From an archaeon (GTDB taxonomy: Archaea > Asgardarchaeota > Thorarchaeia > Thorarchaeales > Thorarchaeaceae), in NCBI GenBank assembly GCA_024276825.1, contig JAJRWI010000042.1:68463-132462 (forward strand): a DNA stretch of 64,000 nucleotides, read 5' to 3'. A program made the position numbers and the translations under genes. Below the pieces are notes generated by a model. It was given only the letters and a program-made list of their open reading frames with translations, was not told the origin of the DNA and did not search any database. The stretch's first letter is position 1. Each line of letters opens with the position of its first letter. Below, piece after piece: positions 18,074 to 36,795 of the stretch.

Positions 18074-18293
18074 TTTTTTTCACCTAGCAGTTAATTGTCG
18101 ATAATACATAGTCACACTAAGTATTGTTACACAGGGTTGATTGTTTTTATCTGGTTAATAAGATTGTTGTTCAAGGAGACTTAAACGAAAAATCGCAATC
18201 TTCAGAACTACTTCATGACCCATTAAAACTGGCCATTACTTTTCATGATCATCTATATTGAAGTCCCAAATTAAAAAAAAAGTGATGACCATG

Positions 18294-29523: not shown

Positions 29524-32112
29524 GTGATTTTAGTTGAGGACACAAAGACAGGCAAAAAGGAACAATTCGTTGTTCTTGATGCATTTATCAGCCTTGGACA
29601 TGTAAGAGCAGGCAGAATATCGAGAACATTCGGCTTCGAAAATGTAATGAAATTTTACATGAAGATCGAGAAGCGGCTGAAGAAGTATTCTAAAAAGTAT
29701 CATGATGCTTATCGATATCATCTGATTGATTCGCCCTTTGAGAGACTGCCACTTGTTGGTATGCTTTATCAAAATGCCTTGGAAGCTTCTAGCTGGTTAG
29801 TTGATTTTTTTATTGCTCATCCTCTAATGCGAATAAAGAAGAAGAGCCTGTCAAAAGGGCAAATACGTGATAATATTGCATCCACATATCGTTGGTCCAT
29901 ATGGCCGCCATTCAGCACAAGATTGTATAACTCACAGGACCTTAGGACGAATATCGCAACAAAGGAAGGATGGGGGTGCACGCTAGATCATGCGTCTCTT
30001 AATGAGTGTCTGGCAGACAAACGAAGGGATAAAGTAAGGAGCTATATCATCTCAAGACTTCCAATCTTCATTGAACTTGATGAACCAGATGAATTAGATG
30101 CCCTGTTAAAATGGTTAATCTCAGTCAAGGAGTCAAATCTTCCCCAGCCCCGATTAATCATTAAGGTGAACTCTCATTTAAACTGGGGTAATGATCTAAA
30201 AAAGTTGCTTGACATTCCTAATTGTATGATTTCAACAGCAGGCGCTACGATTCAGTCGCTTGCAGCATTGATCAAGACTGCTATGTCCAAGTTTAGGGAC
30301 AGGTGGTCTACACGGTTTGTCTTTGCGAGCAATTATCCAAATGTAAATGAGGGCGATGAGGTTTCAGAGATACTTAGTCTACTTCTCAGCAAGAGTTTGT
30401 CTGCAGAGCCCGAGGATGTACAAAGAATACTCGCAGGAAACATCATGTCATTGTTGCCACCAAGGCCACCGTCCCTGAATTACATTGAGAATGATGTGTC
30501 AGTAGTTGCAGAAACACGGCTTGGAAATGTTGCATTGAACGAGATGAGTAGGGTTCTACAACTTCTTGCAGCAAAGGGGCGACATGGTGTAGTTTCTGTG
30601 GATTTCATGATAGCAGATGGTGGTGGAAAGATTGACACTAGCAGTTTCATCTTTACCATCAGAGAGGGGAGAACAGATTCTGCAACAAATCTTGGTATAG
30701 TCATTGAGAAAGATGGTACATTCAGAGTGACAGGTTGGAGGAGGGCCTTTAACGAGATGTTGCCAGCCAGAAACAACAAGGTATTCTCAACCCTTATGCG
30801 TTCTGCGACACAGTCTGGAGCTATTATGTTGAGTTCGCCAACTCATATCTCACAGTTTGTGAAAAGTCTATTAAAAGGCCTAAGAGTTTTAGAAACTAAT
30901 GAGATAATTGCCTCTTTGCGATTCAAAGTCAGATATGGGGTGCTAAAGCTGGGGAGCATTGCGATGAATCCTGATGATATAGAAGCAATCAGATTAGAGA
31001 GAGATCATGCAATAATGCTGGAGGCATCAACGCAGACTTGGGGTGTGGCCAAGGTCATACCCAATCCATTGTGCCCTTCCAAATCAGTTATAATGTCACC
31101 AGACGAAGCAAGATTCTTGGGATTCAAGAGCCCATCATATATTGACATTGTGAGTTTCAATGACCAAGTAGTGCATCTTAAAGAGGCAGTATTCACTTTC
31201 AATATAGATGATAATATAAACGAGGTTGAAACTTTTTCATTCATTGTGATACAACGCGACAAGATAGAGGAGATGATCAGAAGTCATTGGTTTGGGAGGG
31301 GTTTCAAGTTCTGGGTGAACCAAGATGCTAGCAGTCTAATGTTTCAATTGACATGTACAAGTCCTGAATTAGAGGCAGGACAAATAGCAGAGATTGCATC
31401 AGGGAAGATTGCACTCAGTCCATCAAGAATTCTAGAGGACTACAACATAGTAATTGGATTAGCATTATCGAAAGACATGCAAGATATCAAGCTCGCCTCT
31501 AGATTTTATCTTTCGGGAGCATTATCAGAGATAATCAACAACTCATCAAGGATAATGCAGTTTGTTTCCAAACTCCGAGATGTCGAGTCGCGAATCAATA
31601 TTTCAAAACTAGCAGCATTGATAGTACTAAATCTAGTAGCACCAAATAGAAATGATTGTGAGTTTGTCCTGTGTTCAAAGCACATTCAGCAGAACATCCC
31701 CGAGATGACTGGGATTTTGACGCCTATTCAAGATGGACTCATCGAAAATCTTGGTGATATTATCATCAACTCATCATTACTAAATGAGAGAGATTCTGAT
31801 ACCATGTTCCAATTAATCAGTCAGAACCTGACACCAAACAAGGAGATCCCAACACTTGTATTGCTTTTTACTGATTTAGCCCTATCAAAAATTAATGGCC
31901 TATTAAGAAAACACAAGATTAGTGAATTAGGGAGGAAGAATATTATCAGCATATTCTGGATGGGAAGCAATGAAACAAATGATACCCTCAACACAAACAC
32001 GCAATTACAATTCATCCCGATTGAAGAGTTCTCCGCTCACATCTTTGGAGGGTATCTTTTATCAGTGTTGGGTGACTTGATGAAACTGGACAGATCACCA
32101 AAGAACGAGTGA
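29524..32112 (+). CDS. Multidomain protein: degenerate amidohydrolase-like plus CDC48 N-like plus vWA-like domains
   Basis: 'RFVFASNYP...ILAGNIMSLL'; 'IAMNPDDIEAI...VIMSPDEARFLG'; 'NIVIGLALSKDM...VLLFTD'. Confidence 0.55.
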   Translation: MILVEDTKTGKKEQFVVLDAFISLGHVRAGRISRTFGFENVMKFYMKIEKRLKKYSKKYHDAYRYHLIDSPFERLPLVGMLYQNALEASSWLVDFFIAHPLMRIKKKSLSKGQIRDNIASTYRWSIWPPFSTRLYNSQDLRTNIATKEGWGCTLDHASLNECLADKRRDKVRSYIISRLPIFIELDEPDELDALLKWLISVKESNLPQPRLIIKVNSHLNWGNDLKKLLDIPNCMISTAGATIQSLAALIKTAMSKFRDRWSTRFVFASNYPNVNEGDEVSEILSLLLSKSLSAEPEDVQRILAGNIMSLLPPRPPSLNYIENDVSVVAETRLGNVALNEMSRVLQLLAAKGRHGVVSVDFMIADGGGKIDTSSFIFTIREGRTDSATNLGIVIEKDGTFRVTGWRRAFNEMLPARNNKVFSTLMRSATQSGAIMLSSPTHISQFVKSLLKGLRVLETNEIIASLRFKVRYGVLKLGSIAMNPDDIEAIRLERDHAIMLEASTQTWGVAKVIPNPLCPSKSVIMSPDEARFLGFKSPSYIDIVSFNDQVVHLKEAVFTFNIDDNINEVETFSFIVIQRDKIEEMIRSHWFGRGFKFWVNQDASSLMFQLTCTSPELEAGQIAEIASGKIALSPSRILEDYNIVIGLALSKDMQDIKLASRFYLSGALSEIINNSSRIMQFVSKLRDVESRINISKLAALIVLNLVAPNRNDCEFVLCSKHIQQNIPEMTGILTPIQDGLIENLGDIIINSSLLNERDSDTMFQLISQNLTPNKEIPTLVLLFTDLALSKINGLLRKHKISELGRKNIISIFWMGSNETNDTLNTNTQLQFIPIEEFSAHIFGGYLLSVLGDLMKLDRSPKNE

Positions 32113-32524: not shown

Positions 32525-33091
32525 TCATATCTTCTGTATGGTCTTCAACAGAATAGCATGACCATCTTCTTCCTTTTCAGTAGGGTCAACGATTATCCCT
32601 GGATCATACGTTTCGATAATTACTTCAACACCAGCATTCTGAACCTTCTTGAAGCCCTTTGGCGTAATAGGGCGTATTGTCAATTGCTTCGTGTTGAATT
32701 CAGTCCTAGTTTTTGCTTCAACTGGCTTTATGTCAAGACGTATCTTTGATTTTGCATGTCGCAGTTGTTCCTTTAGCTCTGCCACTTGCACTTGAAGTTC
32801 ATTGCGTGATTCTCTCATGGCACTCAATTGCTCGCGAATATCTTCGTATTCTGTTCGATCAACAAAGTTTTGGGATCTATCAATCCAAGTCAAGGTCGTA
32901 CCGTCATATCGACGTTCAGTTTCAATTAAGTCCAGCCCCTTCAATACTGCAATGATGTCATACACTCTTCTCTTTGGAACATTCAGCTCTCTTGCCAATG
33001 CCTCACTCTTGATACCCTGAGGATAAATTTCCTTGAGTATCCTGACTGACTCCCGGGCGAGATCAACAAGCTTCATACCTAAATCCCCCAA
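32525..33091 (-). CDS. E2F/DP-like winged-helix transcription factor with coiled coil
   Basis: 'LARELNVPKRRVYDIIAVLKGLDLIE...W' followed by a heptad coiled coil and a beta-rich C-terminus. Confidence 0.75.
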   Translation of the reverse strand: MGDLGMKLVDLARESVRILKEIYPQGIKSEALARELNVPKRRVYDIIAVLKGLDLIETERRYDGTTLTWIDRSQNFVDRTEYEDIREQLSAMRESRNELQVQVAELKEQLRHAKSKIRLDIKPVEAKTRTEFNTKQLTIRPITPKGFKKVQNAGVEVIIETYDPGIIVDPTEKEEDGHAILLKTIQKI

Positions 33092-33339
33092 GGTGGTAAT
33101 ACCTAATTCACTCTCGGGTCACTTCTAGGATATAATTGATTGGTAGTATATAGATGTTTGTATTGTATTATCGATTTATAGTAAAACCCCCCTCAAAAAT
33201 GCTAAAATCGATTTTACGGTAACAGTAATTATATTTCGAATATCTTATGAGGGATGTGATCTCTGTCAGTACCGATAATATCTTATTACATGGCTGTGGG
33301 CATCTCATTGACATAACTACACATCAGGTGGAGTTGAAA

Positions 33340-34674
33340 ATGCCAAGGAAAAAAGTCATCATTATGGGAGCTGCAGGCAGAGATTTTCATAACTTCAATA
33401 TGTTTTTCAGAGATAATGAGGATTATGAAGTTGTGGCATTTACTGCGGAGCAGATTCCGGGAATTGGAGATAGAATTTACCCGCCGGAGTTATCAGGAAG
33501 CCTATATCCCAAGGGTATAAAGATATACCCAGAGGAAGAGCTTCCCGAGCTAATCGAGAAATATGATGTTGAACAGTGCATTTTGGCATATTCCGACTTG
33601 TCATACGAAACTGTAGGACATAAGATAGCATGGGTCAATAGTCTTGGGCCTGACATGCGATTGATGGGTCCAAGTACTACAATGATTAAGAGTGATAAAC
33701 CGGTAATAGCTGTGTGTGCAGTAAGAACAGGCTGTGGAAAGAGCCAGACCTCACGTCGTGTGAACTCCATTCTTGTGGAAATGGGACTCAAACCAGTAAA
33801 TATTCGGCACCCCATGCCATATGATCCAGACCTGACCACGCAGATTTCGCAGAGATACGAAAAGCTAGAAGATATGGACAGGTATAACTGCACAATTGAG
33901 GAGAGAGAGGAATATGAACCCATGATAAACATGGGTGTGATTCTGTATGCAGGAGTAGATTATGAGAAGATTGTTCGTCAGGCAGAACAGGAAGCAGATG
34001 TCATCACATGGGATGGGGGGAACAATGACTTCTCATTTGTTAAGCCGGACCTGCTCATCACAATTGTGGATCCACATAGGCCGGGTCATGAGATATCATA
34101 CTACCCTGGCGAAACCAATCTGAGAATGGCTGATGTTGTTATTATTAACAAGATTGACACGGCAGACTATGATTTCATTGAAGAGGTTAGAGAGAATGTC
34201 ATGTCTGTGAATCCAAAGGCTATAATCATTGAGGCAGCATCGCCACTGACTGTTGATGATTACAGCATCATTCGTGGCAAGAGGGTAATTGTTGTAGAAG
34301 ATGGCCCCACTGTCACTCATGGTGAGATGCCATACGGCGCAGGCTACATTGCCGCGAGAAAGGCAGGGGCAGAGATTGTGGATCCCAGGCCTTTTGCTGT
34401 GGGTAGCATCAAGAACACCTTTGAGAAATACACGCATCTTGAGGATGTTCTTCCTGCTATGGGATATGGCAAGAAGCAGATGGAAGAACTTCAAGAAACA
34501 ATTAACCGCTCAGATGTTGATGCCATCGTAATTGGAACTCCCATTGATCTTGGAAAATTGATAGAAATCAATAAACCAAGTGTCCGAGTCCGTTATGACC
34601 TCCAAGAGATTGGCAGGCCAAATCTTGAGGACATTTTAGGAGATTTCATCAAGGAACATGGCCTATTGAAATAG
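33340..34674 (+). CDS. COG2403 P-loop enzyme (cyclic 2,3-DPG synthetase-like; arginine synthetase ArcE-like)
   Basis: GAAGRDFHNFN, AVRTGCGKSQ, RHPMPY, TIEEREEYE, WDGGNND, VEDGPT.THG, LPAMGY; ATG 33340 after AGGTGGAG. Confidence 0.88.
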   Translation: MPRKKVIIMGAAGRDFHNFNMFFRDNEDYEVVAFTAEQIPGIGDRIYPPELSGSLYPKGIKIYPEEELPELIEKYDVEQCILAYSDLSYETVGHKIAWVNSLGPDMRLMGPSTTMIKSDKPVIAVCAVRTGCGKSQTSRRVNSILVEMGLKPVNIRHPMPYDPDLTTQISQRYEKLEDMDRYNCTIEEREEYEPMINMGVILYAGVDYEKIVRQAEQEADVITWDGGNNDFSFVKPDLLITIVDPHRPGHEISYYPGETNLRMADVVIINKIDTADYDFIEEVRENVMSVNPKAIIIEAASPLTVDDYSIIRGKRVIVVEDGPTVTHGEMPYGAGYIAARKAGAEIVDPRPFAVGSIKNTFEKYTHLEDVLPAMGYGKKQMEELQETINRSDVDAIVIGTPIDLGKLIEINKPSVRVRYDLQEIGRPNLEDILGDFIKEHGLLK

Positions 34675-35199: not shown

Positions 35200-36795
35200 T
35201 TAAGCAGGCTTTGGACGGATATCTATTACTTCCATGAATTTAAGGCCGCCAGCCTTCTCCATCAATGTTTCAAATGACATTATGAAGACATTGGGAGTGA
35301 CCTCTGTACTGACTTTTGTAATTCGCTTAATCTCTGCAATAAGCTCGGTATGATCTTCAGATGGAGAGCCGCGTGGTGCAACATAAAGATTCAAGACATC
35401 CATACTGTAAGGGTCATTCATATCTTCTTTTGCCACTTCAATCTGAAGTTCATCAACTTGGGGGAGTGAGAGAATATCGGACCGGAGTGCAGATAAATTG
35501 ACTGTGGCCCCCTTGATCTTTTTCTCAGAGATACCCATTACTTGGATTTGTGCCTCTGCATCGTTTGTCCGCCCAATATCCCAGAAGAAGGGGCCATCCA
35601 TTCCGCAGACTGGACATTTACCTCGTTCATGCTTAGACACCACATCACCAAGTAGAAAGCCCTCAAATACAGTACCGGTGCCATCAAGATGAAACAGTGT
35701 GACATAGCCTGATTCATCCTCACTTGCAAAATCATAAGTCCCATCATTATTGTACTTTACAACTTCAAATGCCAGCATCAATGGCGAAACATTATGATAA
35801 GGTCCATGTAGATCACATTGGACAGCAAATGATATCTTGCTCTCTGATGAGGCATAACCTCCAACAACACGGACCTCTCTTGCCCCTTTCTCTTCAAGAG
35901 TACTGGTTATATCATCAATAACTGGCTGATATATCTTCTCGCCTGCTATTACTAGAACAACTTTTTCAGGGGCCTTGTACTCCGTGTTGGCCTTCATTGC
36001 TCTAAAGAATCTGTTCCTCAGGTAACTTGGCATTCCTGCAAAACCGTTGACTTTGAACACACTGGCCATATCAACAAGCTTCTCAGTTGGAATGGCCCCA
36101 CCCGCGCTGGTCGCAACATAGAACTTTGAAATCTGCTTTAGTCCGATATTCACTGCGTGCCATCCAAGGTGGGGAGCATAAGGAAACAGGTTCATACTTA
36201 TGAGCTCCCAGCCAGAGTCCACCCAGGGATCAATTGCCATTTGCCCGACTTTAATGCAATTGGCCGCGAGAAGGTCATTATCATAACGTGTTAAAAACAC
36301 AGGAGAAGGAAGACCTGATGCCCTCCCAGAACTGAGCCAGAATTGTAGGGGGGAGTAAAAATAACTCATGTGGTCCTTCAACTCTTGCATGGCATCCTCT
36401 GCACCAATCTTGAGCTTCACACGAGCACCCTTATTTCGAATGAATTTGGCCTTTTCAGAATAGTTAGATGCTTTGTAGTAGCTCATGAGTGATCGAATGA
36501 TATTAACGGGAGGGCGCTCATTGCCATCCACCTCCGTGGGGTTTAGAACAAACTCTCTAAGATTGTCCTTGTACTCGTGCTTTTTTACGAGTGGAATATT
36601 ATATCTCGCCCAGTCTTCAATACAAGAAATATTGAATGGGTCAATATTCAGACTTTTGAATAGTCTTCGATAATATGGATGATTTGGCCAGACTTGATAA
36701 CGGATGAATGCACGAAACTTCTTATCCTGAATCTCCTTAATCTCGCGATGATTTGTCATCTTGAGCTCTTTAAATGTGAAAGTTGTCTTGGTCAC
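35200..36795 (-). CDS. Phenylacetate-CoA ligase (PaaK)-like adenylate-forming enzyme
   Basis: PYYR..F, SSG..G.P, G.PSYL, AGE, Y..SE, GD, GR and 'IKGA.V' motifs. Confidence 0.8.
   Translation of the reverse strand: MTKTTFTFKELKMTNHREIKEIQDKKFRAFIRYQVWPNHPYYRRLFKSLNIDPFNISCIEDWARYNIPLVKKHEYKDNLREFVLNPTEVDGNERPPVNIIRSLMSYYKASNYSEKAKFIRNKGARVKLKIGAEDAMQELKDHMSYFYSPLQFWLSSGRASGLPSPVFLTRYDNDLLAANCIKVGQMAIDPWVDSGWELISMNLFPYAPHLGWHAVNIGLKQISKFYVATSAGGAIPTEKLVDMASVFKVNGFAGMPSYLRNRFFRAMKANTEYKAPEKVVLVIAGEKIYQPVIDDITSTLEEKGAREVRVVGGYASSESKISFAVQCDLHGPYHNVSPLMLAFEVVKYNNDGTYDFASEDESGYVTLFHLDGTGTVFEGFLLGDVVSKHERGKCPVCGMDGPFFWDIGRTNDAEAQIQVMGISEKKIKGATVNLSALRSDILSLPQVDELQIEVAKEDMNDPYSMDVLNLYVAPRGSPSEDHTELIAEIKRITKVSTEVTPNVFIMSFETLMEKAGGLKFMEVIDIRPKPA

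Follow-up and report, generated by a model that had tools for sequence, protein, structure and literature searches.

The window analyzed here, a stretch of 64,000 nucleotides covering positions 68,463 to 132,462 of contig JAJRWI010000042.1 in the thorarchaeal genome assembly GCA_024276825.1, encodes on its minus strand a protein of 183 amino acids (aa) with the DNA-binding domain of the E2F/DP family. The gene occupies 32525..33076, with the stop codon at 32525–32527 included and an ATG start codon at 33076–33074. Its product consists of an E2F/DP-type winged-helix domain (residues 1–66; 32879..33076), which carries the RRVYD recognition motif (residues 36–40; 32957..32971), a 42-residue heptad helix (residues 74–115; 32732..32857), a four-stranded beta-domain (residues 127–166; 32579..32698), and a short amphipathic helix at the C terminus that is specific to Thorarchaeota-type proteins (residues 172–182; 32531..32563), all on the minus strand. 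More than 140 homologs share the protein over its full length, the C-terminal half included. Taking the evidence as a whole, we consider it likely that this gene is an ortholog of the published Asgard E2F/DP-like proteins and that it encodes a small sequence-specific DNA-binding regulator.

The first-pass annotation of this locus, made from the sequence alone, assigned the protein to an open reading frame (ORF) at 32525–33091 on the minus strand. That ORF is present, its translation matches the one quoted in the annotation, and the helix segment and the beta-rich C-terminal part are both found in it, but its start has to be corrected. The 183-aa protein on record is 100% identical to the product that begins at the ATG at 33076 (MKLVDLAR...), and the orthologs all start at the equivalent codon, 6–8 nucleotides (nt) past a GGGGTG or GGGGGA Shine-Dalgarno sequence. 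In the window this sequence is GGGGGA (33084..33089, minus strand), lies 7 nt before the ATG, and corresponds to GGGGTG in orthologs; the TTG at 33091 adjoins it. Because the database form and all orthologs begin at the equivalent of the ATG at 33076, after the Shine-Dalgarno sequence, the TTG is not the start, and the true start is almost certainly this ATG. Most orthologs have a strong GGGGTG Shine-Dalgarno sequence and begin with TTG or GTG; the gene in the window has ATG.

Several comparisons bear on the identity of the N-terminal domain. First, residues 15–61 match the Pfam E2F_TDP model (PF02319) with 40 bits (E = 3.2e-10; gathering cutoff 25.7), and a six-frame search of the genome with the same model finds this gene at 42.4 bits. 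Second, the best sequence matches among Protein Data Bank (PDB) structures are E2F8 and then E2F4, and a profile of the family, searched against 5.8 billion sequences, retrieves plant E2FB (44 bits, E = 7.9e-6), E2F3-like proteins, and E2F4. Third, hhalign aligns the family profile with the region of eukaryotic E2Fs that spans the DNA-binding domain (DBD) and the coiled-coil/marked-box (CC-MB) module at a probability of 96.7% (E = 3.6e-10). Furthermore, the AlphaFold 2 (AF2) model of the winged-helix part has a predicted local distance difference test score (pLDDT) of 85–90 and the topology helix-helix-helix-strand-strand. E2F/DP cell-cycle factors carry an RRxYD DNA-recognition motif, in which the valine of RRVYD is as in DP, and the seven-residue block that contains the motif here, PKRRVYD (P34–D40), is invariant in 36 Thorarchaeota homologs. 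Given the Pfam score, the PDB and profile matches, the hhalign result, and the invariant PKRRVYD block, residues 1–66 are, as judged by sequence comparison, a genuine E2F/DP-family winged helix and not one of the TrmB type. The resemblance is far beyond chance, and the winged helix with RRVYD at 32971–32957 described in the first-pass annotation is thus confirmed.

Asgard homologs of E2F/DP have been reported earlier (Eme et al. 2023, Nature 618:992, Supplementary Information 4.1.5 and the accompanying eukaryotic signature protein sequence list). In that work the base-contacting residues were found to be conserved in the Asgard homologs, a CGCG-type site was suggested, and the homologs were stated to lack a dimerization domain; the first mention of Asgard E2F/DP was credited (as reference 44) to de Mendoza and Sebe-Pedros (2019). 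The occurrence of E2F/DP in Asgard archaea is also stated in a review from 2024 (The Archaeal Cell Cycle). The list of Eme et al. (2023) contains 151 PF02319 entries, 38 of which have the helix signature QVQVAELKEQ and the same layout as the window's protein; the exact sequence of the latter is not in the list. The homologs that we find are 48–69% identical to it and come nearly all from Thorarchaeota, the closest (55–69%) being annotated as hypothetical proteins of Thorarchaeota metagenome-assembled genomes (MAGs). An E2F_TDP domain is present in 124 of the 301 sampled genomes of the phylum and in 68 of the 76 genomes of the window's own family, mostly as a single copy, and is found in none of the 68, 28, and 21 genomes of some other Asgard families. 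The gene belongs, as an ortholog, to a catalogued, uncharacterized Asgard E2F/DP family; as the Asgard DNA-binding domain has been published before, it adds one more member. The proposal of the first-pass annotation that the E2F system has a prokaryotic root consequently stands for the Asgard DNA-binding domain and falls as a novelty.

The C-terminal half of the protein is conserved as strongly as the winged helix, with F127, R135, V145, E151, V152, G160, D164, and P165 invariant. Its long helix is modeled by AF2 with a pLDDT of 82–98, follows the winged helix at an E2F-like distance, as the first-pass annotation had noted from the spacing and as BLASTP, the model, and the heptad periodicity all indicate, and shows hydrophobic residues at the a and d positions in a 3-4 repeat (L94-V98-L101-L105-(T108)-L112; periodicity peak at 3.6 residues). 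It is leucine-zipper-like and a probable dimerization helix, and 12 of 29 family members match the HALZ leucine-zipper model. The beta-domain comprises strands at residues 131–136, 142–147, 152–156, and 161–166, bears the signature G.EVxIE...G..V.P, and reaches a pLDDT of about 89–92 when a diverse alignment is supplied; residues 66–183 modeled in this way have a mean pLDDT of 87. The full-length monomer model, built from a shallow alignment, is unusable over its C-terminal 65 residues (pLDDT 38–58). When a profile of residues 66–183 was searched against 1.84 billion representatives, just 10 clusters were retrieved, all of short proteins, and a single-protein search gave no longer or fused relatives at E ≤ 0.01.

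Asgard proteins of this kind occur in several layouts. The first, in Thor, Jord, Frey, and others, combines the winged helix with both coiled coil and beta-domain; the second has the winged helix and the same beta-domain without the coiled coil (114–137 aa; Heimdallarchaeota-labeled or unclassified MAGs); the third is a Sif-type variant; and the fourth joins the winged helix to an unrelated C terminus. The same beta-domain is found in proteins from Heimdall-labeled, Jord, Frey, and Sif MAGs, and because it is common to layouts with and without the coiled coil, it is the partner that the DNA-binding domain has in common across lineages. The sharing of this beta-domain among Asgard lineages, whether a coiled coil accompanies it or not, goes beyond the existing literature. 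The helix and the beta-domain would most likely constitute a dimerization module. We also observed Asgard E2F_TDP proteins of a third class, about 147–161 aa long and with the motif KKRRIYD or EKRRLYD, which have a different conserved C-terminal domain and neither the coiled coil nor the beta-domain of the Thor type.

The first-pass annotation went further and aligned this half residue by residue with the dimerization coiled coil and marked box of E2F1. On that reading the whole eukaryotic E2F/DP core would be present, with helix and beta-domain homologous to coiled coil and marked box, respectively, and a homodimeric protein of DBD-CC-MB type would predate the E2F/DP duplication. We give this reading an appreciable but minor chance. 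The order and spacing of the parts are shared with E2F, and BLASTP against plant E2FB gives a single colinear segment that begins in the winged helix and extends into the coiled coil (residues 28–113 against 162–239, with 8 gapped positions); the marked-box part of the lineup has no score of its own. The full-length hhalign alignment is likewise colinear over 139 columns, reaching the first marked-box strands, and runs restricted to the C-terminal half choose the same register. Once the winged helix is removed, however, these C-terminal alignments match the eukaryotic CC-MB with E values of 0.26, 0.057, and 0.06 and probabilities of 0.2–1%, and widening the eukaryotic CC-MB profile with divergent E2F4 leaves the result unchanged. 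Against column-shuffled CC-MB profiles the comparison of the beta-domain with the marked box is noise (9.5 against 8.6 ± 1.8, with 49 of 200 shuffled profiles as good), and the helix-containing comparison exceeds its null only slightly (15.3 against 9.8 ± 2.0, 4 of 200 as good), a small excess such as any two coiled coils would give.

In structural and language-model comparisons the resemblance to the E2F module is weak. In a Foldseek search with the C-terminal model, the top-ranked of 350,542 chains is 2aze_B, the CC-MB of E2F1, at a nonsignificant E value of 2.9 (probability 0.14, template-modeling (TM) score 0.33–0.37), and VIA gives a root-mean-square deviation of 9–10 Å. The protein language-model search with residues 118–183 ranks a cluster of the E2F_CC-MB family (PF16421) first, and 8 of the 10 family-bearing hits agree, at an Atlas score of 0.77 that lies below the reliability line on a scale where one shuffled protein in three reaches 0.8 and which is uncalibrated for queries that are parts of proteins. 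This lead is possibly biased, because the query is itself part of an E2F-domain protein, and it was not reproduced with the Heimdall-type beta-domain of a distant relative. A shape search of the Atlas was also tried and set aside, as it returned the protein's own cluster and then unrelated helix-plus-domain proteins such as a plant bHLH/ACT-like protein (TM 0.47).

Each pointer to CC-MB homology is thus individually below significance, and several observations count against it. Neither PF16421 nor DP (PF08781) is matched by Pfam in the protein (E ≤ 10) or in 29 family members, searching the PDB with the profile brought up no CC-MB chain at E ≤ 10, and a six-frame search of the genome gives no PF16421 or PF08781 at E ≤ 1. 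Additionally, the Asgard beta-domain has four strands in about 40 residues, the last two E2F strands are without a counterpart, and the coiled coil is missing from the Heimdall-labeled relatives. The assignment of the C-terminal part to CC-MB in the first-pass annotation therefore has no sequence or profile evidence apart from the winged helix, and its structural evidence is weak and nonsignificant; the hints converge without amounting to a demonstration, and the homology is doubtful. We prefer to describe the heptad helix and beta-domain as a putative family-specific dimerization module that has the E2F order of parts and is perhaps related to the CC-MB by descent.

It is very improbable that the protein is an ordinary archaeal winged-helix regulator of the TrmB/MarR kind whose likeness to E2F arose by convergence in the recognition helix. 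TrmB-type regulators, too, have a coiled coil after their winged helix, a winged helix plus a dimerization helix is a common archaeal layout, there are weak matches to TrmB, MarR_2, and HTH_20, and generic ArsR/MarR winged helices head the Foldseek results for the full-length model, with no more specific match, which is the outcome expected for the winged-helix fold. In contrast, E2F_TDP passes its curated cutoff, whereas TrmB (PF01978; 18.2 bits against 25.6) and MarR_2 (15.4 against 27) fail theirs, a comparison that the first-pass annotation had itself proposed as the check on its assignment. Furthermore, the five distant full-size relatives that were scanned all pass E2F_TDP (30–39 bits), and the family profile specifically retrieves eukaryotic E2Fs.

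Equally hard to credit is a eukaryotic origin of the gene, whether by contamination of the bin or by recent transfer, even though outside the Asgard archaea the family is eukaryotic and within them it is patchily distributed. The contig that holds the window is 132 kb long and comes from a 2.94-Mb genome with 98.3% completeness and 1.8% contamination, the nearest relatives of which are Thorarchaeota MAGs; about 40 Thorarchaeota MAGs share the gene order around the E2F-like gene, so the contig is not the eukaryotic contamination that the first-pass annotation had named as a refuting outcome; and the gene has an archaeal promoter and Shine-Dalgarno sequence. In a tree of the DNA-binding domain (68 columns, six eukaryotic E2F domains and 40 Asgard sequences, no DP sequences), a long branch with 99/98 support splits the eukaryotic E2Fs from all Asgard sequences, with no nesting among the latter. 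The interior of the Asgard part of this tree is not resolved; the separation itself argues against a recent transfer from a eukaryote to an archaeon.

We favor an Asgard E2F/DP-like regulator, and the region upstream of the gene holds a promoter-like block and a candidate operator. A promoter-like block, AATACAATACAAAC-ATC-TATATA (33146..33169, minus strand), lies about 70 nt before the start codon in columns that are nearly invariant, and the promoters of the family share the consensus AAyACAAAC-N4-6-TAAATA, followed by a leader of about 70 nt and the strong Shine-Dalgarno sequence. A hairpin in the leader, suspected by eye, was dropped when RNAalifold predicted no consensus pairs. Just upstream of the promoter block, the motif TCGnnAAATCG occurs in 37 of 52 Thorarchaeota orthologue upstream regions, always on the gene strand and 100–122 nt before the start, and in some regions another copy is found 36 nt farther upstream. 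There are 44 occurrences in 11.7 kb of upstream windows and 2 in the other ~500 kb fetched, a density about 900-fold higher. The copy in the window, CGTAAAATCG (33218–33209), is degenerate and overlaps a perfect palindrome, AAAATCGATTTT (33215–33204), the two together forming a candidate operator at 33204..33218 on the minus strand; a second partial copy, TAAATCGA, is located at 33178–33171. With its CpG step and A-tract, TCGnnAAATCG is reminiscent of the E2F site yet distinct from it, and we put it forward as a candidate operator. A further intergenic copy in the window, CGAAAAATCG at 18186–18195 (plus strand), lies between two minus-strand ORFs. An attempt to read a regulon from the motif in this genome was uninformative, the other copies being near a LysE-like membrane protein and an ORF of unknown function.

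The site searches lend no support to the E2F-type DNA specificity expected in the first-pass annotation. The canonical E2F site TTTSSCGC is present in none of the 52 orthologous upstream regions, and across the genome it shows no upstream enrichment (164 sites, 9.1% of them within upstream bases, which make up 9.4% of the genome).

The genome offers no counterpart to the partners of eukaryotic E2F. It encodes exactly one E2F_TDP gene and no DP domain, in agreement with the single gene claimed in the first-pass annotation, and since the genome is 98.3% complete we conclude that there is no separate DP partner. The annotation had also noted no Rb or cyclin in the window, and this extends to the genome: RB_A (PF01858) is absent at E ≤ 1, RB_B and CDK not having been searched for, and Cyclin_N gives only subthreshold matches (19 bits against a 23-bit cutoff). 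In Thorarchaeota two conserved neighbors nearly always flank the E2F-like gene. The first, a divergent P-loop GTPase of the CobW/HypB/UreG type (33247..34674, plus strand), shares the intergenic promoter region and is kept in more than 30 loci; its real start is probably a methionine near 33340, because the listed ORF (475 aa) is ~30 residues longer than the orthologs (443–447 aa). A convergent cyclophilin-like gene (PF04126; 32135..32524, plus strand), found in 38 loci, has a stop codon that abuts the stop of the E2F-like gene. Further out, an 862-aa ORF at 29524–32112 (plus strand) has no Pfam or NCBIfam match and is kept beside the locus in a few Thorarchaeota, and a 531-aa ORF at 35200–36795 (minus strand) has weak PaaK/acyl-CoA-ligase-like matches and keeps its position three genes upstream in 22 loci.

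Several points weigh against a sequence-specific regulator of the E2F kind. Our literature search found no experimental work on any member of the family. The CGCG-type site that the conserved base-contacting residues would predict did not emerge from the site searches of the genome and the 52 promoters, and the copy of TCGnnAAATCG in this genome's own promoter is degenerate. In 31 related genomes the same motif also occurs elsewhere (243 copies against 59 in a reversed control, about four-fold), and it forms the inverted ends of noncoding segments of about 600 nt; as it is not exclusive to the E2F-like promoter, it cannot be assigned to the E2F-like protein. The neighboring GTPase and cyclophilin-like genes give no functional or cell-cycle hint.

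The ~600-nt segments are of interest in their own right. They are bounded by inverted TCGAAAAATCGAA-N6-8-TGAGTG and have a partly conserved core, GTATTCGG...CCATACTCA...TGTGTAC. The genes that flank them vary between genomes, they are often at contig ends, and Rfam has no family for them; one lies in this genome outside the window (contig C20:48-578). They may represent a mobile element, a noncoding RNA locus, or a replication-related element.

For the E2F-like protein we propose the role of an ordinary archaeal transcription factor. The helix and beta-unit would join two copies, and the resulting homodimer would present two recognition helices to DNA, taking the place of the eukaryotic E2F-DP heterodimer. 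It would do so independently of Rb, cyclin, and DP, as the genome appears to encode none of the three, and would probably act on its own divergent promoter too, where TCGnnAAATCG lies just upstream of the TATA-like box.

The E2F/DP-Rb system is the switch for S-phase entry in eukaryotes, and its origin bears on the rise of the eukaryotic cell cycle. The conserved second half, be it zipper helix and beta-domain or, in Heimdall-type proteins, the beta-domain alone, has been dismissed in the literature and probably makes dimers. Should it prove homologous to the marked box, the E2F-DP heterodimer would trace back to a homodimer of archaea, and if the Asgard helix and beta-domain were the ancestral form of the CC-MB, a complete E2F/DP core would have existed in archaea as a homodimer before the duplication, contrary to the published lack of a dimerization domain. 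The conserved promoter motif supplies a defined probe with which binding experiments on this uncharacterized family could begin.

Among known systems, eukaryotic E2F1–6 (PF02319 + PF16421; structures 1CF7, 2AZE, and 5TUU/5TUV) have a DNA-binding domain with RRxYD that is homologous to that of the Asgard protein. The order of parts is also the same (winged helix, short linker, long helix, beta-rich part), the lengths are comparable, and the CC-MB modules of E2F1 and E2F5 show a weak end-to-end structural resemblance to the Asgard C-terminal half. However, there is no significant sequence or profile similarity to E2F1–6 past the winged helix, the E2F marked box is larger than the four-stranded Asgard beta-domain, and the Asgard protein has no transactivation or pocket-protein-binding tail of the E2F type. 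The eukaryotic system further includes a DP partner, Rb, and cyclin, none of which is encoded in the Asgard genome according to the PF08781, RB_A, and Cyclin_N searches. DP1/DP2 (PF02319 + PF08781) are similar in that a winged helix is followed by a dimerization region, but the PF08781 signal is absent from both protein and genome, and DP chains are not among the structural matches. The archaeal TrmB regulators (PF01978; an 18-bit match) likewise combine a winged helix with a dimerizing helix, but E2F_TDP is clearly the better and the passing model, and the Asgard protein is without the C-terminal sensor domain of TrmB. The Asgard homologs of Eme et al. (2023) are the same family, with the same layout and taxon range as the window's protein; where these were stated to have no dimerization domain, we find a conserved heptad helix and beta-domain that most likely dimerize.

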